NCBI GenBank assembly: GCA_965200315.1
Contig: OZ241362.1
Coordinates: 320,001 to 384,000 of the forward strand
From: Candidatus Latescibacterota bacterium
GTDB lineage: Bacteria; Latescibacterota; UBA2968; UBA8231
Direction of reading: 5' to 3'
DNA: 64,000 bases
Shown in pieces: positions 46,797-63,046 of the stretch. The translations under genes were made by a program, and so were the position numbers. The notes under the pieces are model-generated. The model had not been told where the DNA came from, did not search any database, and saw only the letters and a program-made list of their open reading frames with translations. Position 1 is the stretch's first letter. Every line of letters begins with the position of its first letter.

Positions 46797-47912
46797 CTAC
46801 AGGCGGTCGCGATATTGTGCTAAGCGGCCGGCGAACATGGAGTCGAGCGCGGCGGCCGAATGCGCCAGCCCGGCGCCAATGCCGCGCTGGGCTACGTGGA
46901 CGAGGAGGCGCATCAGCCCGTTGGCATCGTCGAGATGGATGTACTCCGGGGCCAATTGCGTGCCCGGCCCCGAGTTGTGATAGTTGCCGAGAGGCAGGGC
47001 CACCGCACCCGTGCGATAACCGGCCTGCATTAGCGGGGTAGCTTCGCAAGCACCACTGTCCATCAGCTTGCGTTGATAGCGGAAAGAGGGCTGTTGGGAG
47101 GCCAACTCGTCGGCTAGGGCAGCCAGCCCGCCGCTGATGTCCGGGTCGAACACCCAGAGTCGGTCGCCCACCCGCAAGATCGGCCCCGCGCCCAGCACCG
47201 CCCCAGCCGCCAAGCTAGAGCACTCAATGTTGATGTAGAGGGCGCGGCGCGGCAAGAATTTGGCCTCTAGCGCGGCGAGCATACCGACAAAACCCACTTC
47301 TTCAGCGCGCGTGAGCAAGACGCCGAGGCGGACCGCAGCTTGGAGACGGACCAAAGAATCCAACACGCACAAAGCCACGGCCGCGCCGGCCAAATCGTCG
47401 ATCGCCCGTCCGCTCAAGCGCCGGCCCCGCACCTTAAAGGCCGGCAAATCCCACATCGCAAAGGTCCCCGGCCCTTGGGGGCTGTCGCGTGCTGCGGCCA
47501 CTTCAACTAGGGGATAGCGCGTTTCTTCTGCCTCCACCGTCCGCACGATGGTGCCCGGGATTCCGCGCTGGGTAGCCGGGCGATTCAGGTCGAATATGCG
47601 CACACCTGTCGCCAGCGCTTGCTCTAGGGCGACACCGCCGAGAACCTCGAACAGTGCTCGGCTTGGCCCCTGCGAGCTTCTCCACACTAAGCCGGGGTGG
47701 TCGAGATGAGCGGTTAAGACGATAAATTCGTCGTCTTCCTGCTGGCCGCCGTCGTATAGCAGCAAGCTATTGCCACAGCGGTCGTGGAGCACTTGAATTA
47801 GAGGCCGAGCGGCTGCGAATGAGTGCGCGATGCCGAGAGCAAAATGCTCGTGGAAAGGGGCTGTGGGGGTGCGGATGAGAGGACGGGCGAGTTGGAGAAA
47901 GTCGAATTCCAT
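46797..47912 (-). CDS. M20/M28/M42-clan metallopeptidase
   Basis: TAPFHE, AHLDHPG, RAIDDLAG, RAEEVGFVG, NIECS, GACEA, LGNYHN; metal ligands intact. Confidence 0.85.
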   Translation of the reverse strand: MEFDFLQLARPLIRTPTAPFHEHFALGIAHSFAAARPLIQVLHDRCGNSLLLYDGGQQEDDEFIVLTAHLDHPGLVWRSSQGPSRALFEVLGGVALEQALATGVRIFDLNRPATQRGIPGTIVRTVEAEETRYPLVEVAAARDSPQGPGTFAMWDLPAFKVRGRRLSGRAIDDLAGAAVALCVLDSLVRLQAAVRLGVLLTRAEEVGFVGMLAALEAKFLPRRALYINIECSSLAAGAVLGAGPILRVGDRLWVFDPDISGGLAALADELASQQPSFRYQRKLMDSGACEATPLMQAGYRTGAVALPLGNYHNSGPGTQLAPEYIHLDDANGLMRLLVHVAQRGIGAGLAHSAAALDSMFAGRLAQYRDRL

Positions 47913-47957
47913 AACACGGAGGAAAAACCCCCAAAAGACCAGCGCCGTCAACTCCCG

Positions 47958-47986
47958 TTGTCCCAATCAGTTAAGCTACTTATTAT
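47958..47986 (+). promoter_or_regulatory. Putative sigma70 promoter of the large membrane operon
   Basis: TTGTCC-17 bp-TATTAT, followed by an AGGGGG RBS and a TTG start at 48013. Confidence 0.55.
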
Positions 47987-48012: not shown

Positions 48013-50169
48013 TTGCTAAGACGCTTGCCGATTCACTATCTGCACCACCTTGCCGGGCGCGACCAAGCCCTGCTTGCGCCGCTTGGTACCCAGCAGCTAA
48101 CCAGGCGTGCGTTTTGGGTGGGGTCGTTCCTCAGCTTTTTCCTCGCCGTCGGCGCTCCGTACGGCAACATGATCATACGCGGCTCCTACATGGCCTTGGA
48201 CTTCAGTACACCAGGGGCCATTTTTTTATTTCTAGTGCTCATCGGGCTGCTCAATGTGCTGTTCAAAATTGCCTCTAGCCCATCGGGAGCAGCAGTGTGG
48301 GCCTTGGTTTCGAGTGCGCTCTATGGTTTCTATTATGGCTGGGTGGCTCCCCTCGATCCTTTTGCCCCGGGTTTTTTCTTTAGCACTTTCATTCTCGTTT
48401 CGTCCCTGCTCAATATGGTATTGGTCTCTTTCGGGCAAAGTCTGGTCCTCAACCGAGCCGAGTTGATTCTCGTGTACGTCATGCTGTTGATCGTCTCGGC
48501 TCTCTGCACCATGGGCCTGAGCGAACAAATTCTGCCGATGCTCACGGCGATTTTCTACTTTGCCTCGCCGGAAAACAAGTGGCAGGAAATGCTCTTTCCC
48601 CATTTTTCCGCGCGAGAAGTCCTAGTCAACGACGGGAGTGACAACAAGACCTTTTACGAGGGATTGGCATCCGGCGAGGCGATTCCCTACGCAGCGTGGG
48701 TAGAGCCTTTGTGCTGGTGGGCGGTTTTTCTCTTGGCGCTATACGTGACCATGGTATCGGTCGCGGTTATCATCCGTCGGCAGTGGATGGAGCGCGAGCG
48801 ATTGCCCTATCCGATCACGCAGGTGGGGCTGGCGATGGTGCGCGGCGAGGAGCACGGGCTAAAGATCAATACCTTTTTTCGCCAGCCGGCCATGTGGGCC
48901 GGTTTTATGTTACCGATTTTTTTTGGCAGCTTGAGGGCCCTGCACCGCTACGAACCGGCTTTTCCGGTCTTCTCTCTGAGTTCGTCGATGCTCTTAGTGG
49001 GCAAGCAGACCTTGCAACTGAGCGTCAGCTTTGCCATGCTCGGTTTTTCGTACTTCATCAATGCCAATATCGCTGCTGGTATCTGGTTCTTTCACCTCTT
49101 GTCCAAGTTTGAAAAGGAGTTCTTCGCGCTTGCCGGCGTGACATCCGAGCAGAAGGTCACCTTCGGCGTGGCCGATTTCCCCCTGATGGCCTACCAAGGG
49201 GTCGGTGCCTTGCTGGCGATGGTCGGGGTGGGCTTGTGGGTGGGCAGGGAACACTTGGGCAATGTGTGTAAAAAGGCCCTCGGCTTGGCACCAGAGGTGG
49301 AGGATGGGGATGAGATCATGTCCTATCGCTGGTCTTTTTTCGGCGCAGTGGGCGGGGTCTTAGTCATGTCGTGCTGGCTGTGGATCATGGGGACGCCGCA
49401 TTGGGTGGCGTTTGTTTTTGTCGTCTTGGCCCTGTTTATCTTTCTTGGGTTGACGCGGATTGTCGCCGAAGCCGGCTTGGCGGCCGTGCGCGCCCCGATG
49501 ACGGCGCCCGACTTGGTGATCTTGGGGTTGGGAACTGACCTAGTAAGCCGGACTGGGGTGTGGAACTTGTCGTTGGCCTATATGTGGGGCGCGGATGTGC
49601 GGGTGTTCGTCATGGCCACCTGCACCAATGCCCTCAAGCTAATCGAAGAAATGGAACCACGGCTGCGGCGGCTGGTGTTTTGGGCTATTATTCTCGCACT
49701 CTTCATTGGTGCGCTCGGTTCGTTTTGGATGATTTTCCACATGGCCTATCAGCACGGCGGCGTGAACCTCAATGGTTGGTTTTTCAAAGGCGCGCCCGAA
49801 GCCGCGTACAACACCGCGTTACGCAACATGGAACCGGCGGGCGTACACTGGCCGGGAATGGGATTCTTGGCCGGTGGTGGGCTGGTGATGATGGCGATGA
49901 TGTGGGCGCGGCAGCGCCTGCCTTGGTGGCCGGTGCATCCCATCGGCTTTCCCATTGGGGCCAACGGCATGCTCAACGGCGTGTGGTTTAGCGTGTTCTT
50001 GGCTTGGTTTATCAAGAAGATGATCATGCGCTTTGGCGGGGTCGCCTTGTATCGCCGCAGTCAGATGTTTTTTTTGGGGCTGATCTGCGGGCAGGTTTCG
50101 TGTAACGGACTGTGGTTGATCATAGACTACTTCACGGGAAAAGTGGGGAACTCCATTTTTTGGGTATGA
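48013..50169 (+). CDS. DUF6785/DUF6784-type polytopic membrane protein (OPT-like peptide transporter family)
   Basis: LNRAELILVYVML, YFASPENKW, RRQWMERERLPYP, TRIVAEAG, WWPVHPIGF, FFLGLICG; about 16 TM helices. Confidence 0.8.
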   Translation: MLRRLPIHYLHHLAGRDQALLAPLGTQQLTRRAFWVGSFLSFFLAVGAPYGNMIIRGSYMALDFSTPGAIFLFLVLIGLLNVLFKIASSPSGAAVWALVSSALYGFYYGWVAPLDPFAPGFFFSTFILVSSLLNMVLVSFGQSLVLNRAELILVYVMLLIVSALCTMGLSEQILPMLTAIFYFASPENKWQEMLFPHFSAREVLVNDGSDNKTFYEGLASGEAIPYAAWVEPLCWWAVFLLALYVTMVSVAVIIRRQWMERERLPYPITQVGLAMVRGEEHGLKINTFFRQPAMWAGFMLPIFFGSLRALHRYEPAFPVFSLSSSMLLVGKQTLQLSVSFAMLGFSYFINANIAAGIWFFHLLSKFEKEFFALAGVTSEQKVTFGVADFPLMAYQGVGALLAMVGVGLWVGREHLGNVCKKALGLAPEVEDGDEIMSYRWSFFGAVGGVLVMSCWLWIMGTPHWVAFVFVVLALFIFLGLTRIVAEAGLAAVRAPMTAPDLVILGLGTDLVSRTGVWNLSLAYMWGADVRVFVMATCTNALKLIEEMEPRLRRLVFWAIILALFIGALGSFWMIFHMAYQHGGVNLNGWFFKGAPEAAYNTALRNMEPAGVHWPGMGFLAGGGLVMMAMMWARQRLPWWPVHPIGFPIGANGMLNGVWFSVFLAWFIKKMIMRFGGVALYRRSQMFFLGLICGQVSCNGLWLIIDYFTGKVGNSIFWV

Positions 50170-53100
50170 AGCACTCGGCTTACTACATCCTCTGCGTTCT
50201 CGTGCTGATTGCAAACAGCGGTTGGGCACGCGAAGACGGGGTGCGCGAAACCGTCTCTTACCTGTCGTCGCTTGGCTCTAGGATCAGTGGCTATCCTGGG
50301 GCCGCCGCCGCCGCGGATTACGTCGAGCAGCGCCTGCGCGAGATCGGCTTGCCCGAGCTGACTCGCGAATCCTTTGAAGTCACCGTGCCCATCGACCAAG
50401 GAGGTGAGTTATTCCTCACAGAGAGTGGGGAGCGCTACGCACTCTATGGCTTATGGCCCAACTTGGTCCGCACCTCGACCCTGCCCGGATACGAAGGTGA
50501 GATGATCTACGGCGGAGATGGCGAGTGGGAGAATTTCGCGGGCTTTGAGATCGACGGCCGGGTGGTGCTGATGGAGTTCAATAGCTGGAGCCGGTGGTTG
50601 CAGGCCGCCTCGCTGGGGGCGCGCGCCATCGTCTTCATCGAGCCAGAGGAGACCACGCGCAATCAAGCTACAGCTAAGTACTCCACTGCGCCGCTGGACA
50701 TCCCGCGCTTTTGGATTGAAAGAGCCGCCGGATTACAGCTCAAAGAGCGGTTGCTCCAGCACCCGACTTCCGTAGTACTCAAGGGGCGGATGGACTGGCA
50801 GCGCAAAACGGCTTGGAATATCTGGGGCCGGTTCCCTGGCGCCGATCCGACGCTGGCTGACGAGACCATTGTCATCGAAAGCTACTACGACGGCATGTCG
50901 GTGGTTCCCGCCTTGGCTCCGGCGGCCGAAGCGACCAGCGGCATTGCTGCGTTGCTGGCGCTGGCCGAGCATCTAGTGCGTCACCCTCCGCGACGCCCGG
51001 TCGTGCTGGTGGCCACGGGCGCGCATTTCCAAGCTCAGCAGGGGATTGTCCACTTCCTCGAGCGCCACGCTCGCCTCCATCCCTACTATGCCGAGCGGAT
51101 GGAAGAGCCGCTCAAGCCCAAGCTCTTCATCTGCATTGACCTGACGAGTCAGTCCGATGGGCTGGGGATCTGGAACAATACCTTTAGCTACGACCTCAAG
51201 CGGTTCTTCGTGCCTTTTGGACGGCGTTTTACGGCCTATGCCGAGGAGGAGTCCGCTCGGTTGGGTCTGGAGCAGGAGCGGCCGCTGGCCAATGGGATCA
51301 GCCCAATTCGCGGCATGGACTGGTCAACTTTTGTGCCGGGCGGGGTCTCGGTCAGTGGGGAGCAGGCTCTGACTGCTGGGATTATCTCGCTGTCGTTTGT
51401 GACTGTCAACGACGGCCGCTATCTCGTCGATACCCCGTTCGATACGCCCGAGCGAATGAATATCGACAATCTGTCCCGCCAAAGCCGCCTGCTCAACGCC
51501 ATGCTGACGCGGGCCATAAACGACGAGGACCTGTTTGCCGACCTCGAAGACTTTGGCCCGGTGCTCAAGGACAAATTGCGTTCCCTGCGGGTCAAGGTCC
51601 GTTCGTTTCCGCGCCGCAGCCAAGCACCAGACCGCCCTATTGCCGACGCCCTTGTAGTGGTTGATCCTTGGTACAAGTCGCACAAGGGACTTCGCATGGC
51701 GCGGTACCACCTCACAGATGACCAAGGCGTCGCCGATATCCATGGCTTGTGGACCGGGGCCTATCCAGTGGCGGCCTACCAAGTTAATCCGGCGACCGGA
51801 CAGATCGTCTATGCGCCCGATCTATCTAAAAGGGGGCAGCAGTTCAGCGGCGCGGTCGTGAATGGGTGGATGATCGACAGCAAAGTTCGCTGGAATACTA
51901 ACGAAAAGACCATCGTCGTCTTTCCCACCATTTCGCGGCCCTTCTACAGCATGATTGACCCGCGCTATCTCCGGTCGTTCAAGGGGATCAAAATCGTCGA
52001 TGGCAACGGGGTGGAACCTCGGCAGTTCGGGCTAGCGCGGGGGGCGGGCGAGGGCGAAGCCGTCGGTGTGGTGTTTGGAGCGCAGGACGCCGACGAGGAC
52101 GACGGCATCAAGATGCTCATCGACAACCGCATGCTCTTACTCAACAGCGAAGGCTCCGAAAACGAGACGCAGGCGCGGGGACGAGGCTACGCGCTCAGAG
52201 AGGAATCGCTGGTCCGCACCGGGATGCTGGCCGTTGAGGACATGTGGCAGCTCAACGAGGCGCGGCTGCGCACCTTGCGCGAGCACGCCATTGAAAATCA
52301 ACGCTTGGCCCGGTTGCACCAGCGCGGCAAAAGCCTGATCGAAAAAGCGCGACAGGCCGAAGAGGTCAAGGATTGGGAGCGCTATGTCGAGCATGTCCGG
52401 GCCGCGCTGGGGGTGACATCTCGTGCGTATCCAGAAGCACTACAGACGCTCAACGACGTCATCAGCGGCATGGTGTTCTTTCTCGCCTTAGTCATCCCGA
52501 CGGCCTTTTTGGGGGAGCGGTTGCTGTTTGCGGCCGCCGACATCCGCTGGCAGCTAGCGGGGTTTGGGGGGTTGTTGCTTTTGATCTGGATCGCCATCTC
52601 TCAGGTGCATCCAGCCTTTGCCATTGCCCATCCGCTGGTGATCTTGCTGGCCTTTGCCATCATGGCGATGGCGGCGTTTGTCATGGCCATGATTAGCAGC
52701 CGCTTTAACCGCTATATGAAGACCTATCAGGCGCGGGAAGCCCACGTCCACGAGACCGATATCAGCCGCGCCAGTGCCAGCTACGCGGCCTTTATGCTCG
52801 GCATTTCCAATATGCGGCGGCGCAAGCTGCGCACCGGGCTGACCTTGCTGACCTTGGTCTTGCTCACCTTTACGGTGCTCTCCTTCACCTCGTTCAATAC
52901 CCAAATTCGCTACATGGCCTTTGCGATGGACCACGAGGGCCCCTACGAAGGAGTGCTGATCCGCGACCGTAATTGGAACTTGCTAAACCGCCCGACGCTC
53001 GACTACGCCCGCTCCCACTTTGCCGCCGAGGGGGTGGTCGTGCCGCGGAACTGGTATGTTGCCTTTGACGACGAGCAGAAGAAATACATCGAGGTCTTTG

Positions 53101-54569
53101 GCGATACCTCGGTGGTGCGGGCGACCGGAATGCTGGGGCTGGTGCCGGAGGAAGTGCGCGTCACCGGCATCGATAAGGCACTGGTGGGCGGCAGCTTCTT
53201 CGCGCACGAGGACGAAGCAACCTGCCTGATGGCCGAGGGCATGGCCGCGGCGCTGGGCATAGGGCCGGCGGAGCTGGGCACGGCGACGGTGCGGGTATTC
53301 GGCCGGGACTTGGTGGTGCGGGGCGTGTTCGACCCCGACCTTTTTGAGGCGGTCCGCGACCTCGACGACGAGCCCCTGACGCCGGCGGATTTCCAGATGT
53401 CGAGCACCCAAGCACTAGGGCCGGTGGCCCAAGACAAGATGAGCATCGCCGTAGATGAATCCGCGCTCGATATTCGTCCCTTCATCCACCTAGAATCCGA
53501 CAATGTGCTGGTCTTGCCATACGGGACATTGCGGGAGGCGGGGGGCATGTTGCGCTCAGTGGCGGTGCTGCTGGAAGATGGGGAGCGCGGACAGGAGATG
53601 GTCGAGGATTTTCTCCTGCGTCTGGCCATTACGCTCTTTGCCGGCCTGAAGGATCCGGGCGAAGCCGCCATTAAGGTGTTTTCCTATACCTCGATTGGGT
53701 CGCCTGATGTCGAGGGCTTGGGGGCCTTGGTGATACCCATGTTTATCGCGGCGCTGATTGTGCTCAATGCGATGATGGGGGCCGTCTATGAGCGCTTTCG
53801 CGAGATCGGCATTTATTCGTCGGTGGGATTGGCACCGTTACACATTGCCTTGCTGTTTGTGGCCGAGGCCTGTGTCTATGCCATCATTGGCGTTACTTTG
53901 GGCTATATTCTCGGCCAGAGTGTGGGCAAAGCACTCATCGCGCTGGACCTGTTGCAGGGAATAAGCCTCAATTATTCGTCGATGGCGGCGATTGTCTCGT
54001 CCCTGATCGTGATGGCCGTGGTCTTGCTTTCGACTATATATCCGGCTAGGGTAGCAGCCCGCACGGCCGTGCCCGATACGGTCCGGCGCTGGACGCCGCC
54101 GGACCCGGATGGGGACCGCTGGGAAATGGAGTTTCCCTTTATGGTCAGCGAGGGGGAAGTGCGGGGCCTGTGCGGTTTCTTAGCCGGTTACTTCAGTGCC
54201 TATAGCGAGGAGTCCATCGGCGATTTCTACGCCGAGAAGGTCCAGTTGGTCCAAGAAGATGGCGAGCGCGGGCCGGAGTACGCGGTGCAGCTCCTGCTCT
54301 GGCTGGCGCCGTTCGACATGGGGGTGAGCCAGTTCATGCAGCTCGAATTTTTGCCCACCTCGGTCAAATCCGTCTATACGGTGGAGATTTACATTCAGCG
54401 GATCAGCGGTCAGGACACCTTTTGGCAGCGGGTCAACCACCGCTTTATCAATGGGTTGCGGAAAGAGTTCCTGCTCTGGCACACCCTCGCCACAGAGTCC
54501 AAGGCCCACCATCGCGGGGTCGCCGAGCAGATGTTGGCTGAGGCCGCAGAAGTTGAGCGAGTGGAATGA
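50166..54569 (+). CDS. M28-peptidase-like/PA ectodomain fused to FtsX/MacB-type permease domains (1467 aa)
   Basis: Signal peptide; SRISGYPGA..AADYV, PA-domain IDGRVVLMEFN...GARAIVF, M28 core; TM cluster; SNMRRRKLRTGLTL and VYERFREIGIYSSVGLAP (FtsX/MacB signatures). Confidence 0.85.
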   Translation: MKHSAYYILCVLVLIANSGWAREDGVRETVSYLSSLGSRISGYPGAAAAADYVEQRLREIGLPELTRESFEVTVPIDQGGELFLTESGERYALYGLWPNLVRTSTLPGYEGEMIYGGDGEWENFAGFEIDGRVVLMEFNSWSRWLQAASLGARAIVFIEPEETTRNQATAKYSTAPLDIPRFWIERAAGLQLKERLLQHPTSVVLKGRMDWQRKTAWNIWGRFPGADPTLADETIVIESYYDGMSVVPALAPAAEATSGIAALLALAEHLVRHPPRRPVVLVATGAHFQAQQGIVHFLERHARLHPYYAERMEEPLKPKLFICIDLTSQSDGLGIWNNTFSYDLKRFFVPFGRRFTAYAEEESARLGLEQERPLANGISPIRGMDWSTFVPGGVSVSGEQALTAGIISLSFVTVNDGRYLVDTPFDTPERMNIDNLSRQSRLLNAMLTRAINDEDLFADLEDFGPVLKDKLRSLRVKVRSFPRRSQAPDRPIADALVVVDPWYKSHKGLRMARYHLTDDQGVADIHGLWTGAYPVAAYQVNPATGQIVYAPDLSKRGQQFSGAVVNGWMIDSKVRWNTNEKTIVVFPTISRPFYSMIDPRYLRSFKGIKIVDGNGVEPRQFGLARGAGEGEAVGVVFGAQDADEDDGIKMLIDNRMLLLNSEGSENETQARGRGYALREESLVRTGMLAVEDMWQLNEARLRTLREHAIENQRLARLHQRGKSLIEKARQAEEVKDWERYVEHVRAALGVTSRAYPEALQTLNDVISGMVFFLALVIPTAFLGERLLFAAADIRWQLAGFGGLLLLIWIAISQVHPAFAIAHPLVILLAFAIMAMAAFVMAMISSRFNRYMKTYQAREAHVHETDISRASASYAAFMLGISNMRRRKLRTGLTLLTLVLLTFTVLSFTSFNTQIRYMAFAMDHEGPYEGVLIRDRNWNLLNRPTLDYARSHFAAEGVVVPRNWYVAFDDEQKKYIEVFGDTSVVRATGMLGLVPEEVRVTGIDKALVGGSFFAHEDEATCLMAEGMAAALGIGPAELGTATVRVFGRDLVVRGVFDPDLFEAVRDLDDEPLTPADFQMSSTQALGPVAQDKMSIAVDESALDIRPFIHLESDNVLVLPYGTLREAGGMLRSVAVLLEDGERGQEMVEDFLLRLAITLFAGLKDPGEAAIKVFSYTSIGSPDVEGLGALVIPMFIAALIVLNAMMGAVYERFREIGIYSSVGLAPLHIALLFVAEACVYAIIGVTLGYILGQSVGKALIALDLLQGISLNYSSMAAIVSSLIVMAVVLLSTIYPARVAARTAVPDTVRRWTPPDPDGDRWEMEFPFMVSEGEVRGLCGFLAGYFSAYSEESIGDFYAEKVQLVQEDGERGPEYAVQLLLWLAPFDMGVSQFMQLEFLPTSVKSVYTVEIYIQRISGQDTFWQRVNHRFINGLRKEFLLWHTLATESKAHHRGVAEQMLAEAAEVERVE

Positions 54570-57500
54570 TGGAAGCGTTTTTTCAAAGACTGTCTGCGTC
54601 TTTTCAGCAGCTATTTGATCGCAAACAAAAAAAGGAGCGCCAGTGGGCGGAGGTTGAAGAGTACCGCGCCTTACTCGAAGCGCCCGAGCCCAACCGCTTT
54701 GATGAAGGTTTTACGATCCGCACCATTATCGGCGTGTTCTTTATCTCGCTGATTATGACTCCTGGCGAGATGTTCCTCGGGCTGTACACGGGTGGCGGCG
54801 TTGGCGCGGCAGCGCAATGGGTGACGGTGATCCTCTTTTTAGAAGTCGCCAAACGTTCGTTTACCTCGCTCAAGCGCCAAGAGATCTACCTGCTAGTGTA
54901 CGTGGCCTCGGCCTTGGTCTCCCGCGAGGAAGGCGCGTTTCTCGACTTACTCTGGCGTCAGTACTTCGTGACCTCGGCCGAAGCCGAGCAATTCGGTATC
55001 TCGCACCGCTTGCCGTCGTGGTGGGTACCCGGGCCCGATTCGGAGGCCATTGCCGAGCGCACCTTTATTCACCGCGACTGGTTGATTCCGATCCTGCTGT
55101 TGGTGGTCGGGACGATCATGGGCCGCATCGCTTGGTTTACGTCCGGCTACATGCTCTTCCGGCTGACTTCCGACCGCGAGCAATTGCCCTTTCCCACCGC
55201 ACCCATGTCGGCGTTGAGCTCTATGGCGCTGGCCGAGGATTCGGGCGCCGAGCGGGAGACGTGGAAGTGGCCGGTGTTTAGCATTGGCGCGGTCATCGGT
55301 GCGTCATTCGGGGCCATCTATGTAGGGGTGCCGGTGGTCACCCATCTCTGGGGATCCAAAGTGGAGATTCTGCCGATTCCCTTCTGGGACCTGACGCCCT
55401 ATTTCGGCAATATACTCCCTGCCACGCCGCTGGGGGTCGTCGTGCACTTGGGGCCGATATTCGCCGGGATGCTCATGCCCTTCTGGCTGGTGGTTGGCTC
55501 CTTTTCCGGGGTGATGCTGCACACGGCTGTTAGCCCCTTTCTCTATGAATTAGGCTATCTCCCGCGCTGGGAAGTCGGTATGGACACCATCCGCACCGGG
55601 ATCGTCACTAGTATCGACTTTTGGCAAGCCTTTTCTATTGGCATTACCATCGCCGTCACCATCGTAAGCTTCTACCAACTCTTTAGCACCGGCCGTGAGA
55701 AGCGGGCCGAACTGCGCGAGAAACTGCAACTTGAGAAGGCTGATCAGTCCACGGTGTGTCAGCACTCGGACTGCCATCGCCCAGCCGAGGTGAGGGGATA
55801 CTGCTTAAAACACCTAGGCCGCGGCGATTTCAATATGTGGGTCTGCGCTTCGCTGTTTTGCGTAGCGGCGATCTATCCGATCGTCTTGGCCAAGGTCTTG
55901 TTTCCCACTTTGGTCAGCACTGGCCTGTTGGTGCTTTTCGTGCTCATCGCCTTTGTTTATGCGCCGATCATGTCCTTTGTCAGCGCTCGGCTCGACGGTT
56001 TGATTGGCGAGAACGTTTCGATTCCCCATGTCGAAAACGCCATCCGCTTTATGACCGGCTTTCGCGGGGTCGAAATCTGGTTCGTGCCCTTTCCTACCCG
56101 CAACTTCGGCGGGAATGCCGAGAGATTTAGGATCGTCGAGTTAGTTGGGATGAAGTTTACCAGCCTACTCAAGGCCGAGCTCTTTATGTTGCCCATCGTC
56201 TTAGGGGTTAGTCTGATGTACTGGACCTTCCTCTGGCGCTTGGGGCCTATTCCCTCGGAAAGCTACCCATACGCGCAGGTCATGTGGCCGCGGCAGGCCT
56301 TTGAACAAGCACTCATCTACTCCGCCACGATGTACAGCAAAATGTGGCGCGCCGGAGGGGAGTTGGAAGGGGATATTGTGCCCAATGGCCAAGTCGTGTG
56401 GAGCCCGAGCAATTTGGAGGACGGTCGTTGGTGGTACTGGCGGGTGAGTACCACTAGGGATTTAGAGGTGCCCGATCCGGTAAAGCGCGACTATGAACCT
56501 TGGTCGCAGACAGGCTACTTCTACACGGACTTCAGCGGCGGGGACGCACCACCGCCGCCGGAGGCCGCCCTAAGGATCGACGCCGAGGCGGGTACTCCGT
56601 CGGATGGCCCCCAGCTACTTTGGCCACCCAATGGCGCGGCCATTGACACGCCGAACCCCAACTTCCGAGCTGCGATCAATTTGGCTCCGGGCGATTCGGT
56701 TGATTTCTACTTTGAAATAGATCGTCTGCCCAGCTTTGATGGCGAGGCTTTGCAACGATCCTCGGACATGCCCTTGCTCTTTGAGGTTCTGTGGCAGGAC
56801 ATGCGCTTTACCGGCAACCGCAAGGACGACGACGGCGATCTCAATATCGCGGCTCTCGTCGAGAGTGTGGATCCGGAGGGGTTGGGAGGCCAGCTTGGAC
56901 TGGCCGACGGCGACCGCCTCCGTGCGATAAACGGCGTCGAACTTCGCGTCCCGCAATGGGATACTGAGCGGATTGATCGGTATTTTACCCAGGGAGCGGA
57001 CTCGGTATTTGCCGCTTGGGAACGGGATGAGAAAACCATGCGTCGCGCTGTGGTGCGTCGATCTGGGGAAGCTCTGGGGCTTGAGTTTGCGGCGGACACG
57101 TCATTCGTCGAGAGTTGGACCGAATACGACGCGGTGCGCGTCACCACCGTAGCCGAAGCAGGGCTAGGCCACCGCTTGGGCTTGCAAGCCGGCGACCATC
57201 TTATGACGATCAACGGCCAAAGCATTGAGCAGGATACGTGGCGTAGCGAGAAGGTAAGGACCGCCTTTGCTGCGGTTGTGGAGGAGACCGCGACTACGGT
57301 GCTAGTCGAGTGGGAGCGGGATGGAGACCGGCTTCAAGGTTTGGTGGCCGATGCGTCGTCTCTCCCGCTAGGCCTGACCTATCGGGCCGGGGCCATCGAG
57401 GGCATCGACGAAGAGCTGGTCAACAACCGCGACGACGATGGCGACGGCCTGATTGACGAGGATACGGACCATCCCCTCGGCGGTAGAAAGTGGCCCATCA

Positions 57501-57799
57501 TCCTCGGCGCAGCGGGATTCGGCTTGACCGCATATTTCACGCTGGCCTTTATGGGAATGCCGATTTTTCTCATCTGGGGATACGTCCAGAGCGTCAACGG
57601 CATTCCGCATGGTCTCATTCCGCAAATCATCGGTGCCTTGATCGCCCGACACTACTTCTGGAAGCGATACGGCATGCAGGAATGGCGGCGCTACGCCATG
57701 GTTCTGAGCGTGGGCTTCGGGGTTGGCATGTCGCTGATCGGCATGTTTAGTGCCGCTTTGGAGATGATCAATAAGGCCGTTTCTTCTCTAGCCTATTGA
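54566..57799 (+). CDS. OPT-like membrane protein with large extracytoplasmic insertion (Fn3-like, 2x PDZ, DxDGDG repeats)
   Basis: FDEGFTIRT, AAAQWVTVILF.EVAKRS, E.LPFP.AP, PIPSESYPYAQ.MW, YFWKRYG...WRRYA.VL..GF..GMSL.GM; ATG overlaps the upstream stop. Confidence 0.82.
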   Translation: MMEAFFQRLSASFQQLFDRKQKKERQWAEVEEYRALLEAPEPNRFDEGFTIRTIIGVFFISLIMTPGEMFLGLYTGGGVGAAAQWVTVILFLEVAKRSFTSLKRQEIYLLVYVASALVSREEGAFLDLLWRQYFVTSAEAEQFGISHRLPSWWVPGPDSEAIAERTFIHRDWLIPILLLVVGTIMGRIAWFTSGYMLFRLTSDREQLPFPTAPMSALSSMALAEDSGAERETWKWPVFSIGAVIGASFGAIYVGVPVVTHLWGSKVEILPIPFWDLTPYFGNILPATPLGVVVHLGPIFAGMLMPFWLVVGSFSGVMLHTAVSPFLYELGYLPRWEVGMDTIRTGIVTSIDFWQAFSIGITIAVTIVSFYQLFSTGREKRAELREKLQLEKADQSTVCQHSDCHRPAEVRGYCLKHLGRGDFNMWVCASLFCVAAIYPIVLAKVLFPTLVSTGLLVLFVLIAFVYAPIMSFVSARLDGLIGENVSIPHVENAIRFMTGFRGVEIWFVPFPTRNFGGNAERFRIVELVGMKFTSLLKAELFMLPIVLGVSLMYWTFLWRLGPIPSESYPYAQVMWPRQAFEQALIYSATMYSKMWRAGGELEGDIVPNGQVVWSPSNLEDGRWWYWRVSTTRDLEVPDPVKRDYEPWSQTGYFYTDFSGGDAPPPPEAALRIDAEAGTPSDGPQLLWPPNGAAIDTPNPNFRAAINLAPGDSVDFYFEIDRLPSFDGEALQRSSDMPLLFEVLWQDMRFTGNRKDDDGDLNIAALVESVDPEGLGGQLGLADGDRLRAINGVELRVPQWDTERIDRYFTQGADSVFAAWERDEKTMRRAVVRRSGEALGLEFAADTSFVESWTEYDAVRVTTVAEAGLGHRLGLQAGDHLMTINGQSIEQDTWRSEKVRTAFAAVVEETATTVLVEWERDGDRLQGLVADASSLPLGLTYRAGAIEGIDEELVNNRDDDGDGLIDEDTDHPLGGRKWPIILGAAGFGLTAYFTLAFMGMPIFLIWGYVQSVNGIPHGLIPQIIGALIARHYFWKRYGMQEWRRYAMVLSVGFGVGMSLIGMFSAALEMINKAVSSLAY

Positions 57800-58587: not shown

Positions 58588-59298
58588 ATGGCAGGTTTAT
58601 TTCAACGCTTGTTTAAAACCGGTCAGGCCGAGGCCCACGCCATGGTGGATAAGCTCGAAGACCCGATCAAGATGAGCGAGCAAGCGATCCGCGACTTAAA
58701 AAAGGACTTGCAGGAAAGTCTCAAGGCTCTGGCCGAGGTCAAGGCGATTTCCATCAGGCTCAGCCGCGAGTCCGAAGACCACCGCCGGCGCGCCGAAGAC
58801 TACGAGCGCAAGGCCATGCTGCTGTTGCAAAAGGCCGAATCTGGTCAGATAGAGGAGGCTGAAGCCGACCGCTTGGCGCGCGAATCCTTGACCCGCGTCG
58901 AAGAGGCCCAGAGTCGGCACTCAGAAGCCTCCCAACAGGCCCAAGCCCAACAGGCGATGGCCGACAAGCTACAGAGCAATGTCAACGATCTGAAGTCGAA
59001 AATCGCCTCGTACGAAAACGATCTAGTAACTCTCAAGGCGCGCACCAAGACCGCCAACGCTACCCGCAAAATCAACCAGCACTTGGCCAACATCGACTCC
59101 AAGGGGACCACGGCCCTGCTCGAACGGATGAAGGAAAAGACCGAAGAGCAGGAAGCCCTCGCCGAAGCCTATGGCGATATGGGAGACGCGGCGACGAGCG
59201 TTGACGACGAGATCAACAAGGCCCTCGCCGACAGCAAGGGAGCCAAAGTCGACGATTCCCTGGCCCAACTCAAGGCCAGAATGAAGACAGCAAAATAA
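58588..59298 (+). CDS. pspA: PspA/IM30 family protein (YjfJ-like)
   Basis: MAGLFQRLF amphipathic helix, DKLEDPIKMSEQAIRDL, long coiled coil, ERMKEK...EALAEAY, terminal LAQLKARM. Confidence 0.93.
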   Translation: MAGLFQRLFKTGQAEAHAMVDKLEDPIKMSEQAIRDLKKDLQESLKALAEVKAISIRLSRESEDHRRRAEDYERKAMLLLQKAESGQIEEAEADRLARESLTRVEEAQSRHSEASQQAQAQQAMADKLQSNVNDLKSKIASYENDLVTLKARTKTANATRKINQHLANIDSKGTTALLERMKEKTEEQEALAEAYGDMGDAATSVDDEINKALADSKGAKVDDSLAQLKARMKTAK

Positions 59299-59321: not shown

Positions 59322-60971
59322 ATGAAATCCCTTAGCCGCAGGCAATTTTTCGGCGCATTCGCCGCCGCTGGTAGCTGGGTCGCTTGGAGTGGTTGCTCGT
59401 CTGACCAGCCGCCGCGGCCGGTCCCTGGGCGGATCGTCAACGAGGGGCCTCCGAGTGGACACCTGCTGCGCGATGTGCATTCTTGGGCAGACTTTGCCGC
59501 GGCTGAGCCCGCGTGCGATGTCGCCATTGTCGGCGGTGGGATATCCGGCTTGGCGGCGGCGTGGAAGTTGCGTCGGTCGGGGGTGGAGCGAATCCTCCTC
59601 CTCGACCTCGACGACCAGCTAGGGGGCACCAGTCGCAGTGGGCACTGGGGCGACCAAGTATTCCCTTGGGGCGCTCACTACATCAACATCCCTCCCGCCG
59701 AAGCCGACTGCATCCACGAAATACTGCAAGATCTAGGCGTCATCGACGGCTACGACGCGGCGAATAAGCCGCTGGCCGCCGCTGGGGCGATGCTGCGCTG
59801 GCCGCACGAGCGGCTCTTCTATCGGGGTCGCTGGGTCGCTGGGCTGGACCCGTTTGTCGACGCATCGGGCCGGGAGCGCGAAGCGTTGTTGCGCTTTGAA
59901 GACGAGATGCTGCGCTGGGCCTTGCATCGCGGCCGGGACGGGCGTCGGGCCTTTGCCATGCCTTTGCGCTACAGCACGAGCGATGTCAGGGTGCGGCGTT
60001 TGGACCAGATCAGTATGGCCCAGTACCTCCGCGAGGAAGGCTGGCACGACGACCGGCTGCGCTGGTTGGTCGATTACGCCTGCCGCGACGACTACGGCAG
60101 CACGGCCGCCCAAGTCTCGGCTTGGGCCGGGATTCACTACTATGCCTGTCGGTTTTATGACTACCGATTACACGAATCGTATCCAGCGCACACGCTGACG
60201 TGGCCCGAGGGCAATGGGTACCTAGTTCAGCAACTCGCTAATAGGCTGGGGGAAAACGAGATAAAGCGACAAGCTCTAGTGGCTCGTCTAGCCGAAGAGC
60301 GGGCACAGGTGCGGTTGGGATACGTCGACTTGGCCACCGGGGAAAAGCGGCAACTGACCGCCCGAGCGGTGGTGTACGCCGGCAAGCTCCACACGGCTCC
60401 TTATGCGATTGCAGACTTGCCGGATGCACAAGCTAAAGCCATGGCGGCCATTGAGTATAGCCCTTGGCTGGTAGCGGCGATTTTCCTCAAAGAACCGCTC
60501 GCTGCCCATCAGACCACTTGGGACAATGTCTTGTACGATAGCCCGTCGCTGGGCTACGTGGTCGCCGACCATCAGCAGGGCGGTGGCCGCGTGTTGATGT
60601 ACTATTGGCCCTTTGTCGATAAACTTGCGGACGCCCGGCAGACCTTGCTCGCGCAGGACCATTCATTCTGGACCAAGCAGATCATGGTCGATTTGCGCCG
60701 AGTTCACCCTGAGCTAGACGACCTCATAGAGCGTGTCGATCTATATCGCTGGGGGCACGGGATGATGCGGCCTAGTCCTCGGTCGCTGTGGGGGCCGACG
60801 GCTGCTTGGCGACAGCAGCCCATGGAGCGGATATTTTTTGCCTCGTGCGATGCCACGGGGCTGCCCCTGTGCGAAGAAGCGATCTTTGCCGGTATGCTGG
60901 CGGCGGAGCAGGCCATGGACTGTCTCGGCGTGGCGTATTCCTCCTCGCTGGGAGGGCTTGCGGATGCCTAG
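59322..60971 (+). CDS. Tat-exported FAD-dependent amine-oxidase-like protein
   Basis: SRRQFF twin-arginine motif and WSGC lipobox; VGGGISGLAAAW, PWGAHY, YACRDDYG, SAWAGIHYY, RWGHGM, CEEAI. Confidence 0.87.
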   Translation: MKSLSRRQFFGAFAAAGSWVAWSGCSSDQPPRPVPGRIVNEGPPSGHLLRDVHSWADFAAAEPACDVAIVGGGISGLAAAWKLRRSGVERILLLDLDDQLGGTSRSGHWGDQVFPWGAHYINIPPAEADCIHEILQDLGVIDGYDAANKPLAAAGAMLRWPHERLFYRGRWVAGLDPFVDASGREREALLRFEDEMLRWALHRGRDGRRAFAMPLRYSTSDVRVRRLDQISMAQYLREEGWHDDRLRWLVDYACRDDYGSTAAQVSAWAGIHYYACRFYDYRLHESYPAHTLTWPEGNGYLVQQLANRLGENEIKRQALVARLAEERAQVRLGYVDLATGEKRQLTARAVVYAGKLHTAPYAIADLPDAQAKAMAAIEYSPWLVAAIFLKEPLAAHQTTWDNVLYDSPSLGYVVADHQQGGGRVLMYYWPFVDKLADARQTLLAQDHSFWTKQIMVDLRRVHPELDDLIERVDLYRWGHGMMRPSPRSLWGPTAAWRQQPMERIFFASCDATGLPLCEEAIFAGMLAAEQAMDCLGVAYSSSLGGLADA

Positions 60972-62484
60972 GCTGGGTGCGCTGTTTTTGCTGGTGGCCA
61001 TTTTCTCGGCCGCAGTCTGTGCCATCGTCTATCAGCTCCTCATCGGCAGTGTGTCTTCCTACTTCCTCGGCAATAGCGTCGAGCAGTTTTCCCTGACGAT
61101 CGGCTTTTTCCTCGCCGCGATGGGGCTTGGCTCTTGGCTTTCGCGCTTTGTCGCCGACGACTTGCTGTTGACGCGACTGGCCCAGCTAGAGATTTGGCTG
61201 GGTTTTTTGGGTGGGCTTTCGGTTGGCGTACTCTACGTGCTCTATGGATACACCGACCACTTTAGGGCTGGCATGTTGGCATTGAGCACGGCGATTGGAG
61301 CATTGATCGGCCTAGAAGTGCCGCTGATCACCCGACTTCTGCGCGGGCACGGTACGCTGCGCGCGGCGCTGTCTAATGTTTTATCCCTCGATTATTTAGG
61401 GGCTTTGTTGGCTTCGTTGCTCTTCCCGTACATCCTGTTGCCCTTCCTCGGCAGCCTGCACACGGCGTTGGTCGCCGGCTTGATCAACGCCGGCCTTGGC
61501 CTCGGCGTGGTGCTTGCGTTTAAGGAGGTGTTGCGAGCGCAGCGCGCCTTCCACTGGCTAGGGGCGCAAGCAGTTGCTGTTATTGCCGTGCTAGGGGCGT
61601 TGGCGTGGCAGGGAGAGGGGTTGCGGGCGCGGTGGGAAAGCGACCTCTACGCAGATCGCATCGTCCACAGCGAGCAATCGACCTACCAGCAAATCGTCCT
61701 GACCCGGCGCGACGAACACCTGCGGCTCTATCTCAATAGCCACTTGCAATTCGCCTCCATTGACGAGCACCGCTATCACGAGGCCCTAGTCCATCCGGCT
61801 ATGGCACTGGCTCCCTCCCGCGAAAGGGTGCTCATCATAGGGGGAGGGGATGGCCTAACGGCGCGGGAAGTGCTCAAATACGAGGAGGTCCAGCACGTCG
61901 ATTTAGTCGATCTCGACCCGGCAGTGACCCGGTTGGCCCAGCGCAACATCTACCTGACGCGGCTCAACGACAACGCCTTGAATCGCCGTCAAGTCCGCGT
62001 GGTCAACGAAGATGGCTTTGTCTTTTTGCAGCGCGAGCACGTGCCGTATGGCGCGATACTAATCGACTTGCCTGACCCTCGCGAGGAGAGCTTGGCCAAG
62101 CTTTATTCGGTCGAGGCCTATAGACTGTGCCGCAAGCTGCTCAGCCCACAAGGCGTCTTGGCGACTCAAGCTTCTAGCCCGTACCACGTCCGCGAGGTGT
62201 ACTGGAGCATTGCTGCCGCCTTGGAGGAAGCTGGCTTTACCGTCCATTCCTATCACTTGCACGTGCCCTCTTTTGGCGAGTGGGGGTTCCACTTGGCGGG
62301 ATCCGCCGGGCTGGATCCGACGGCAGTCGCCTTTGCCGTTCCCACGCGCTATATCGACCGCCAAGTATGGGGGGGCCTCTCGGTGTTCGACGGCGATATG
62401 GCCCGCTTGCCCGTGCAGGCCAACCGACTTGATAGGCCGGTGTTGGCGCGTTATTATCGACAGGGTTGGGACACTCAGTTTTGA
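60964..62484 (+). CDS. speE: Membrane-bound polyamine aminopropyltransferase (spermidine synthase family)
   Basis: N-terminal TM domain (YQLLIG..SSY..G.S..QFS, GLEVPL, DYLGAL); QFASIDEHRYHEALVHP, IIGGGDG, VDLD, IDLPDP, VPSFGEWGF. Confidence 0.92.
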   Translation: MPRLGALFLLVAIFSAAVCAIVYQLLIGSVSSYFLGNSVEQFSLTIGFFLAAMGLGSWLSRFVADDLLLTRLAQLEIWLGFLGGLSVGVLYVLYGYTDHFRAGMLALSTAIGALIGLEVPLITRLLRGHGTLRAALSNVLSLDYLGALLASLLFPYILLPFLGSLHTALVAGLINAGLGLGVVLAFKEVLRAQRAFHWLGAQAVAVIAVLGALAWQGEGLRARWESDLYADRIVHSEQSTYQQIVLTRRDEHLRLYLNSHLQFASIDEHRYHEALVHPAMALAPSRERVLIIGGGDGLTAREVLKYEEVQHVDLVDLDPAVTRLAQRNIYLTRLNDNALNRRQVRVVNEDGFVFLQREHVPYGAILIDLPDPREESLAKLYSVEAYRLCRKLLSPQGVLATQASSPYHVREVYWSIAAALEEAGFTVHSYHLHVPSFGEWGFHLAGSAGLDPTAVAFAVPTRYIDRQVWGGLSVFDGDMARLPVQANRLDRPVLARYYRQGWDTQF

Positions 62485-62497
62485 AAGGACATGCCAG

Positions 62498-63046
62498 ATG
62501 GGTTTAAGGAAATGGTTCAGTGGTCGCCAAGACGAGGAAGAACCGACCTATCAGGAGTATTCACTCAGCACCATGAAGGTGGGCTTTCTAGTCGATTACG
62601 ACCTCAAAACGTGGCAAGTTACAGGCCGTGGAAGCTATGACTACGAAGGCTATACTACAGAGGAATGGGAATTGCAGGCCGATGGTCAGGTGTGCTTCCT
62701 CGAGTGCGCTATAGAAGACGGCAAAGCCTATTGGACCCTGACGCGGGCGATTGGCATTGACGAAATCGAAGGCGATATTGCGGCGGTGATCATCGCCGAC
62801 GGCGACCCGCCTGAAACTGTACGGTTTGAGGGTGATGAATACGTGGGGAGCACGAGCGATGCGGGCCTGTACCGCAAAGACGGCACCGAGGCGGAGCGCG
62901 AATTTGTCAACTGGTCGTTTGAAGGAGAAGAAGGCAAGGTGCTTTTTATCAGCCAGTGGGGCGAGCGCGACTTTGCCGCGTACGCAGGCTTGGAGGTAGA
63001 AGAATACCAATTCACCGACATCTTGCCGGTGGAGGAGGGCACTTGA
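62498..63046 (+). CDS. DUF4178-type protein (YjfK-like)
   Basis: Acidic beta-rich protein, MKVGFLVDY...WQV......Y......EW.L, PPETVRFEG..Y, ISQW; position in the PspA operon supports the call. Confidence 0.72.
   Translation: MGLRKWFSGRQDEEEPTYQEYSLSTMKVGFLVDYDLKTWQVTGRGSYDYEGYTTEEWELQADGQVCFLECAIEDGKAYWTLTRAIGIDEIEGDIAAVIIADGDPPETVRFEGDEYVGSTSDAGLYRKDGTEAEREFVNWSFEGEEGKVLFISQWGERDFAAYAGLEVEEYQFTDILPVEEGT

Follow-up and report, generated by a model that had tools for sequence, protein, structure and literature searches.

Eukaryotic membrane complexes are known to contain M28 ectodomains that are not catalytic, among them nicastrin, nicalin and the transferrin receptor, and nicastrin has been proposed to act as a substrate receptor or gatekeeper. 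Active M28 peptidases bind their co-catalytic zinc through five ligands (His, Asp, Glu, Asp, His), with a general-base Glu immediately before the ligand Glu. The PA-M28 aminopeptidases from Aneurinibacillus (AM-1, 2ek8), B. subtilis (BSAP/YwaD, 6hc6) and P. aeruginosa (PaAP, 8ac7/8acg) are soluble di-zinc enzymes with the motifs HxD, D, EE, D/E and H, while transferrin receptor 1 and GCPII, the latter an active di-zinc enzyme, are eukaryotic type II proteins that cross the membrane once and dimerise through a helical domain. In the BOS complex (6w6l/7tm3) nicalin retains HYD and GAD, with GG where active enzymes have EE; it has a single C-terminal anchor and is partnered with the 7-TM protein TMEM147 (PMC7505659).

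The window considered here, the whole 64,000-nucleotide stretch of Candidatus Latescibacterota DNA that was analysed, encodes a protein in which an M28-like head is joined to a stalk and a permease (Table 1). The earlier note had described positions 50166-51560, which correspond to residues 1-465, as a nicastrin/nicalin-like non-catalytic M28 ectodomain in a bacterial permease. The start ATG at 50166 overlaps the stop of the upstream gene (ATGA, 50166-50169), and orthologues match the protein from residue 1 onward. The putative signal peptide lies below the TM threshold in the hydropathy scan.

Table 1. Features of the permease gene and its neighbours in window coordinates, with residue numbers of the 1467-aa product unless another protein is named.
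Feature	Residues	Position	Strand	Basis
Divergent M42-like peptidase gene		46797..47966	-	Pfam M42 2.9e-15
Upstream coupled gene, 718-aa polytopic DUF6785 + DUF6784 protein		48013..50169	+	Pfam 6.6e-107 and 1.6e-28
Whole gene; product order signal peptide, PA/M28-like head, beta-sandwich, helical stalk, 3 TM, FtsX/MacB-type permease, C-terminal cytoplasmic domain	1-1467	50166..54569	+	ORF and translation
Putative Sec-type signal peptide (MKHSAYYILCVLVLIANSGWA)	1-21	50166..50228	+	By eye from sequence
PA + M28-like ectodomain	22-465	50229..51560	+	
PA-like insert core, containing K171 and R181	122-192	50529..50741	+	Pfam PA E=0.005; conservation
Y240-Y241-D242 replacing H-x-D (Zn2 His lost, Asp kept)	240-242	50883..50891	+	Alignments
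E255 in AP(A/G/S)AE loop, at or beside the M28 bridging Asp, one-residue deletion	255	50928..50930	+	Alignments
H287-F288 replacing M28 Glu-Glu (general base and Zn1 ligand)	287-288	51024..51029	+	Alignment to 2anp/1amp
D325, putative fourth M28 ligand (Asp), retained	325	51138..51140	+	Motif LFICIDLT ending a predicted strand
D422, putative equivalent of last M28 His ligand, varies D/N	422	51429..51431	+	Weak alignment to 6hc6 HTPED
Transthyretin/CnaB-like (carboxypeptidase-regulatory-like) beta-sandwich	470-588	51573..51929	+	
Second beta region and three long helices (stalk into membrane)	589-767	51930..52466	+	
Three hydrophobic TM segments	768-847	52467..52706	+	Hydropathy scan
FtsX/MacB-type unit: TM1, periplasmic domain (913-1185), TM2-4	888-1300	52827..54065	+	Pfam, PDB matches
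Cytoplasmic C-terminal domain, fold without assignment	1301-1467	54066..54566	+	Conserved
Downstream coupled gene, 1077-aa polytopic, two PDZ domains (its residues 765-807, 836-889)		54566..57799	+	Pfam PDZ_6 2.4e-12

The AF2 model of residues 22-465 adopts a PA-plus-M28 aminopeptidase fold with a pLDDT of 89.2, and its best Foldseek matches are 2ek8, PaAP and BSAP with E of about 1e-25. Both Foldseek and VIA-align place active bacterial PA-M28 aminopeptidases in the lead, followed, among M28/PA ectodomains, by the transferrin receptor and GCPII. Comparison of the whole domain as a profile with the PDB gives the same order, with 2ek8 at 3.6e-13, BSAP/YwaD 6hc6 at 1.1e-9 and nicalin at 1.1e-4, the last weaker than 2ek8 by eight to nine orders of magnitude. 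Pfam Peptidase_M28 is matched by 20 of 30 family members, while the query alone has no Pfam M28 match at E<=10; the head has the alpha/beta aminopeptidase fold and is significantly similar in sequence to M28 members. A PA-like insert, also claimed in the earlier note, is supported by the fold, with 373 to 399 residues superposing by VIA-align on the PA-bearing 2ek8, 3iib and TfR, but the Pfam evidence for it is weak, since PF02225 scores 17.3 bits in the query against a cut-off of 23.9 and appears in 2/30 members at E<=0.1.

The altered zinc-site motifs that had been read from the translation are all present in it (YYD 240-242, APAAEATSG 251-259, GAHFQ 285-289, LVDTPFD 420-426), and the di-zinc site reads YYD / AE / HF as compared with HxD / D / EE in M28. 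Tool alignments map YYD, E255 and HF, pairing HHD...APG---ANDDASG of 2ek8 with YYD...APAAEATSG, and GAHFQA with both AAHEVG of the E151H mutant of the Aeromonas aminopeptidase (2anp) and AAEEVG of the wild type (1amp). The proposed change of YHT to VDT is less certain in its mapping, which draws on a weak second 6hc6 stretch and the motif pattern only, although the string LVDTPFD itself is there. From its motif and the end of a predicted strand, D325 probably corresponds to ligand four of M28. In place of the ligand set of an active enzyme the protein has Y240, E255, F288, D325 and D/N422 (the last two mapped by motif position and weak alignment), and H287 occupies the position of the general-base Glu. 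Relative to the soluble PA-M28 aminopeptidases, the head reads YYD, E, HF, D, D/N, has a loop longer by 3 residues past the first motif, and is attached to a stalk and permease; GCPII differs from it in being an active di-zinc enzyme. As a control, the 513-aa M28 protein of the same genome retains HYD, D and EE. Model, fold matches and alignments together bear out an M28/PA-fold ectodomain that has neither the canonical di-zinc ligands nor the general-base Glu, and the term "non-catalytic" holds for canonical M28 chemistry only.

Conservation was followed in 121 sequences and in 147 representatives mutually <50% identical, with 429 positions ranked. The substitutions are fixed across this very large family, and the centre of the old active site is strongly conserved. 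D242 is found in 121/121 sequences and 146/147 representatives (rank 3/429), H287 in 121/121 and in 142/143 representative rows (rank 6/429), with no Glu at position 287 in any row of either sample, and D325 in 120/121 and 135/139 (rank 22/429). Y240 is present in 119/121 sequences, the representative rows with a residue there (146) having Y in 117, H in 13 and F in 9; position 255 is E in 120/121 sequences, and among 145 representative rows it is E in 106 and D in 23. The PA-lobe residues K171 (146/146 diverse representatives) and R181 (145/146) rank first and fourth of 429. Position 288 is F in 119/121 sequences; in the 143 representative rows that carry a residue there it is hydrophobic or variable (F 81, H 19, Y 16, C 10, G 9). 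Position 422 is D in 80 and N in 34 of 121.

As D242, H287 and D325 belong to the best-conserved positions, the old zinc pocket looks, from these alignments, repurposed rather than decayed. Two other functions are conceivable for the head. It could be an inert scaffold, as in the transferrin receptor, which docks a partner or holds a complex together while the pocket stands idle; we regard this as quite improbable, since a pure scaffold does not explain why the old active-site centre and two basic PA-lobe residues should be among the most conserved positions of the domain. The head could also still be an enzyme with a remodelled centre, in which H287, D242, E255, D325 and Y240 bind one metal or none and act on a periplasmic substrate by hydrolysis or modification. 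An invariant His at the general-base position and the kept Asp/Glu residues also fit a remodelled enzyme. Against this, the site has lost the two His ligands as well as the Zn1 Glu, position 288 is hydrophobic or variable and 422 alternates between D and N, and we know of no M28 member that functions with this residue set, so that we consider continued enzymatic activity unlikely.

The check suggested for a link to nicastrin and nicalin, a comparison of the head with these proteins and with active M28 peptidases, instead found the whole domain nearest to the active bacterial PA-M28 aminopeptidases. Nicastrin is absent at E<=10 when the whole-domain profile is run against the PDB, nicalin is not among the best 50 matches listed by Foldseek or VIA-align, and Pfam Nicastrin PF05450 is found in 0/30 members at E<=0.1 and gives no match to the query at E<=10. 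A profile of the 73-column core behaves differently, with nicalin as the best PDB match (26.2 bits, 5.7e-5) by a margin of 0.3 to 5 bits; the Aeromonas E151H mutant scores 25.9 bits, YwaD 21.6 and the wild-type Aeromonas enzyme 20.3, while nicastrin reaches 13.9-15.6 bits (E 0.12-0.41) and 2ek8 13.8. Nicalin comes first because the loop that leads from the HxD strand to the acidic loop has a length common to both: the spacer from the (H/Y)YD strand to the GA(D/E) loop is as long in nicalin as here, and in 2ek8, 6hc6 and the M28 protein of the same genome it is 3 residues shorter. The nicalin string given in the earlier note is real, as nicalin 218-254 TIVIVAHYDAFGVAPWLS(L/H)GADSNGSG aligns gap-free up to the acidic residue.

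On this basis the family could be taken for a specific relative of nicalin and/or nicastrin of eukaryotes, as their sister or their ancestor, a reading to which the core match, the equal spacer and the occurrence of AHYDA, as in nicalin, in 2/7 paralogues all lend something. The margin on the core profile is so small that it does not establish kinship with nicalin, and by whole-domain sequence and fold the active bacterial enzymes are far ahead. The substituted residues are not common to both either, since nicalin reads H-Y-D, GAD and, where this family has HF, GG. Nicastrin (gamma-secretase, 5a63) resembles the head in being a non-catalytic M28-like ectodomain within a membrane complex, but is found here at no better than its core-profile E values. 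The layout of nicalin and nicastrin, with a single C-terminal TM anchor on a 7-TM APH-1/TMEM147-type partner, is also not that of this protein, whose head lies N-terminal to 3 + 4 TM helices of which the last four are FtsX-type. We therefore consider specific kinship very improbable. It would be a long shot, too, that the nicalin-type luminal domain of eukaryotes came from this family or a close sister of it. Pointers in that direction are the nicalin loop length in the M28 core, nicalin as best core match among solved structures, a CnaB/transthyretin-type beta-sandwich after the head, of the kind that composes NOMO, and a head wired to a seven-helix membrane part. If this were true, the ER multipass translocon would owe one of its accessory modules to a prokaryotic envelope machine.

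The assignment of the membrane part to an FtsX/MacB-type permease, also made in the earlier note, agrees with both Pfam and PDB matches. FtsX PF02687 is found in the query at residues 1188-1300 (E=1.2e-11) and in 30/30 members, MacB_PCD in 6/30, and the profile matches in the PDB are MacB, YtrF, LolC and LolF (2e-8 to 5e-5); residues 1301-1467 match no Pfam family. The three-helix FtsX module follows TM1 and a periplasmic domain, the arrangement of MacB/FtsX-type (type VII ABC) permeases. The protein is like MacB, LolCDE and FtsEX in having a C-terminal four-TM unit with its periplasmic domain between TM1 and TM2, and differs from them in three additional TM helices, a 750-residue N-terminal periplasmic extension and, in this clade, the lack of an adjoining ATPase, the neighbours being the DUF6785/6784 protein and the PDZ-bearing polytopic protein. 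No ORF with Walker A and signature motifs is found in this region of the window, nor does one of the seven paralogues have an ABC ATPase-like ORF within 14 kb, and only 9/81 sources, mostly of a distant clade, have an ABC ATPase. With no adjacent ATPase, the "mechanotransmission" step is here without its motor; an ATPase without an FtsX neighbour is encoded elsewhere in the genome.

The neighbouring genes are coupled to the permease. Overlaps of 4 nt are found at both junctions, the downstream start overlapping the permease stop (ATGA, 54566-54569). A DUF6785/DUF6784 homologue is present within the fetched locus in 71/80 loci, is fused to the permease in 6 of the 120 proteins listed as well as in the own-genome paralogue p2, and is fused or within 14 kb for 7/7 own-genome paralogues; homologues of the PDZ-bearing gene occur in 49/80 loci and the M42-like gene, possibly a cytoplasmic partner, in 29/80. 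The permease very likely belongs to a multi-protein membrane complex, which makes a functional analogy with nicastrin and nicalin reasonable. What had been inferred from the resemblance can thus be kept as a plausible analogy between heads of membrane complexes, while the specific kinship finds no support in the whole-domain profile, Foldseek, VIA-align or Pfam.

We consider it probable that the domain is the pseudo-aminopeptidase head of a three-protein envelope machine, which captures and presents a ligand. The head would derive from bacterial PA-domain M28 aminopeptidases, having lost both His ligands, the Zn1 Glu and the general-base Glu, with D242, H287, D325, Y240/Y241, E255 and the PA-lobe K171/R181 forming a putative pocket under strong conservation. 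Presumably exported to the periplasm, it would rest on the beta-sandwich and helical stalk over the seven-TM membrane part, the last four helices of which, with their periplasmic domain, would form a mechanotransmission unit of the MacB/LolC/FtsX type. The permease, the DUF6785/DUF6784 polytopic protein and the PDZ-bearing polytopic protein would be one machine, presumably working with an ATPase whose gene lies elsewhere. The head has most likely ceased to cut and may instead capture a ligand, for which its descent makes the free N-terminus of a peptide or protein the most plausible candidate. It would present this ligand to the membrane partners, to be transported or processed, with each paralogue having its own specificity. 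The idea of a peptide ligand draws on descent, the PDZ domains, the M42-like neighbour and an OPT lead that is weak (Pfam support 0/17).

The family comprises 1076 representatives at E<=1e-30, more than a thousand 50%-identity clusters and 570 confirmed stretches in species genomes; it is present in 155/168 genomes of the phylum, this genome having seven paralogous sets, and we found no publication about it. In two metatranscriptome assemblies, 5.1-kb contigs span the junction with the upstream gene and most of the permease gene; all these RNA-library contigs come from one study, in which DNA carry-over is possible. A dead aminopeptidase as the outer head of a membrane machine would be the same move that eukaryotes have made, here on a large scale in bacteria. 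The pocket ligand would offer a first way into this envelope system, so far unstudied, of bacteria that are uncultured, and the system may serve as a tractable bacterial model of a pseudo-peptidase acting as a receptor.

The M28-like domain described in the earlier note (50166-51560) corresponds to residues 1-465 of a 1467-aa permease. The permease gene shares 4 bases with each neighbor, its ATG overlapping the upstream stop codon and its stop codon the downstream ATG, as in a translationally coupled operon. Across the whole protein Pfam recognizes FtsX only, and over the N-terminal 485 residues it gives only a sub-threshold PA domain. The head is firmly homologous to M28 all the same: a search with its sequence alone matches the bacterial PA-M28 aminopeptidase 2ek8 at E = 2.8e-4, a 34-row profile does so at 3.6e-13, and 20 of 30 relatives match Peptidase_M28 in Pfam. 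For residues 22-485 AF2 gives a model with a pLDDT of 89.2 and a pTM of 0.89, and Foldseek with the head model returns first 2ek8, PaAP and BSAP (~1e-25), then the transferrin receptor and GCPII.

Features of the three-gene module, its flanks and its counterparts elsewhere in the genome of the source organism (coordinates prefixed G000:C1)
Feature	Coordinates	Strand	Basis or remark
M42-like peptidase gene, head to head with operon	46797-47966	-	Pfam M42 2.9e-15, weak M28 match
Upstream 718-aa polytopic protein, DUF6785 + DUF6784	48013..50169	+	Pfam
1467-aa permease with M28-like head	50166..54569	+	ORF and translation
Conserved cytoplasmic domain, last 167 residues	54066-54566	+	W1309 and P1382 among the positions invariant in 30 sequences
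Downstream 1077-aa polytopic protein, two PDZ domains	54566..57799	+	Pfam
PspA/IM30 gene	58588-59298	+	directly 3' of three-gene module
Amine oxidase-like flavoprotein	59322-60971	+	
548-aa protein	60838-62484	+	spermidine synthase domain in C-terminal half
DUF4178 protein	62210-63046	+	
LolD/MacB-type ABC ATPase ORF	G000:C1:1047277-1048032		54.5% identity to distant-clade operon ATPase L068:6084-6920
Fused paralogue, single 2128-aa ORF	G000:C1:1296124-1302507		DUF6785/DUF6784 at residues about 1472-2123
Paralogue p5, 1599-aa ORF	G000:C1:4025716-4030512		head profile matches in two pieces, 53-344 and 442-613

The four altered zinc-site motifs read in the earlier note are all present in the translated sequence, and tool alignments place them on the M28 catalytic positions: HHD...APG---ANDDASG of 2ek8 lies opposite YYD...APAAEATSG, and AA(E/H)EVG of the Aeromonas aminopeptidase lies opposite GAHFQA. 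The E151H mutant of the latter enzyme (2anp) outscores the wild type because the family has His at the same position. D325 probably represents the fourth M28 ligand, as judged from motif and strand position, and D422 may represent the last (His to D), as suggested by a weak stretch of alignment to 6hc6 (BSAP/YwaD). Glu at position 287 occurs in no row of the alignments. Among 429 positions D242, H287 and D325 rank 3rd, 6th and 22nd in conservation, with the PA-lobe residues K171 and R181 1st and 4th; as a control, the 513-aa M28 of the same genome retains HYD, D and EE. The substitutions and conservation ranks together indicate that canonical di-zinc chemistry is gone family-wide and that the pocket is strongly selected, so the pocket appears to be changed rather than decayed.

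Residue counts at site positions in the 121 sequences of the first search and in 147 representatives mutually <50% identical
Position	121 sequences	147 representatives
240	Y 119	Y 117, H 13, F 9
242	D 121	D 146/147
255	E 120	E 106, D 23
287	H 121	H 142/143 rows
288	F 119	F 81, H 19, Y 16, C 10, G 9
325	D 120	D 135/139 rows
422	D 80, N 34	

It had also been proposed that the domain is an analogue, and possibly a relative, of nicastrin and nicalin. The nicalin string cited in support does occur in nicalin, which also heads the matches to the 76-aa segment, with an E-value of 0.59. With a 73-column core profile against PDB, nicalin (26.2 bits, 5.7e-5) stands beside 2anp (25.9 bits, 7.3e-5), followed by YwaD (21.6 bits, 0.0015), the wild-type Aeromonas enzyme (20.3 bits, 0.0041), nicastrin (13.9-15.6 bits, 0.12-0.41) and 2ek8 (13.8 bits, 0.43); canonical M28s of the source genome give 21.1 and 20.5 bits. 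The advantage of nicalin here is due to an equal 10-residue spacer with V-x-P-x-L; in 2ek8, 6hc6 and the 513-aa M28 the spacer has 3 residues fewer. The whole-domain profile places nicalin (1.1e-4) on par with the E151H mutant and far behind 2ek8, with nicastrin not matched at E<=10, and a 30-row full-length profile gives nicalin 0.057. The derived residues also differ, nicalin having HYD, GAD and GG where the family has YYD, AE and HF, a pattern consistent with catalysis having been lost separately in two branches of a single superfamily. The head is an analogue of both eukaryotic proteins and, at most, a possible relative. In two published studies, nicalin-TMEM147 is modelled on nicastrin-APH-1 (PMC7505659) and NOMO is likened to bacterial Ig-fold proteins, BaTIE above all (PMC8327139).

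C-terminal to the head come a transthyretin/CnaB-like beta-sandwich, a second beta region and then three long helices, with residues 470-767 modelled at a pLDDT of 89.5; the ESM Atlas relates the middle region of the protein to an unnamed cluster at 0.81. Hydropathy gives three TM segments in 768-847 and four at 888-912, 1186-1208, 1219-1250 and 1270-1295, the last three of which carry the FtsX Pfam match. The FtsX/MacB-type unit consists of TM1, a periplasmic domain and the last three TMs, and matches MacB, YtrF, LolC and LolF. Given a cleaved signal peptide (assigned by eye) and an odd helix count before FtsX TM1, the head should be periplasmic. A duplicated-FtsX origin, in which the head replaces the periplasmic domain of a first repeat, was rejected, since hhalign of 750-870 vs. 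1170-1310 gives a probability of 0.2% and the N-terminal hydrophobic stretch falls below the TM threshold. The last 167 residues, which match no Pfam family, are located where an ABC ATPase normally docks.

Of 80 related loci, 71 have the DUF6785/4 gene, 49 the third (PDZ) gene, 29 an M42-like gene and 23 PspA, downstream of the module. Permease-DUF6785/4 fusions of about 2100 aa account for 6 among 120 relatives listed, and the fusion is also found in 6 of 32 loci read through and in one paralogue of the source genome, where the order is the reverse of that in the window, DUF6785/DUF6784 standing behind the M28-FtsX part. This genome (5.36 Mb) has seven paralogues of the head-permease protein, each either fused to a DUF6785/4 homologue or no more than 14 kb from one, four with a full-length third-gene homologue and a fifth near a fragment of one; two of the seven have HYD in place of YYD, and the split head match in p5 implies a ~100-residue insertion inside the M28-like lobe. 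None of the seven has an ABC-ATPase-like ORF within 14 kb. Such an ORF occurs in 9 of 81 sources, mostly of a distant clade, in which it precedes the DUF6785/4 gene by about 1 kb. The LolD/MacB-type ORF in the table is the second-best homologue of the distant-clade ATPase in the source genome, has no FtsX-like ORF within 7 kb, and may be a shared motor for the ATPase-less paralogues.

The two polytopic proteins flanking the permease have the short motif (E/D)RE(R/Q)LP(Y/F)P and a weak profile match (hhalign E = 0.0014, probability 17.7%, 65 columns) in common and may be distant paralogues; BLASTP between them gives E = 0.27. OPT kinship of the DUF6785/4 protein is a lead from a motif and from ESM Atlas scores of only 0.76-0.78; none of 17 members matched Pfam OPT at E<=10, and neither NCBIfam nor a PDB sequence search returned anything. 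The PspA/IM30 neighbor may link the module to membrane stress. A polyamine-type gene run occupies 59322-63046 (+).

A word-indexed search gave 520 relatives, representatives number 8814 at E<=1e-3, 2069 at E<=1e-10 and 1076 at E<=1e-30, and 570 stretches were confirmed in species genomes, the best 80 of which are labeled Latescibacterota, Gemmatimonadota-type MAGs or uncultured bacterium. Within the phylum, 155 of 168 genomes carry the protein family, and a single taxonomic family lacks it (0/13). Three metatranscriptome assemblies from one study contain 86-94% of sampled words, and two of them have a 5.1-kb contig (49204/49208-54328) crossing the upstream gene junction. RNA-library contigs cover 30/30 bins of the 12.2-kb stretch, including the divergent gene, with strand and level not readable and DNA carry-over possible; the window itself may derive from the DNA run of this study.

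We found no paper on DUF6785/DUF6784 or on MacB/FtsX with aminopeptidase-like, pseudoenzyme or peptidase M28; among the papers listed for nicalin none names an Asgard or prokaryotic origin, and the titles and abstract openings of those listed deal neither with an FtsX-M28 fusion of this type nor with a bacterial homologue of nicastrin or nicalin. The domain is most likely a pseudo-aminopeptidase that forms the head of a widespread, so far undescribed envelope module of MacB type.
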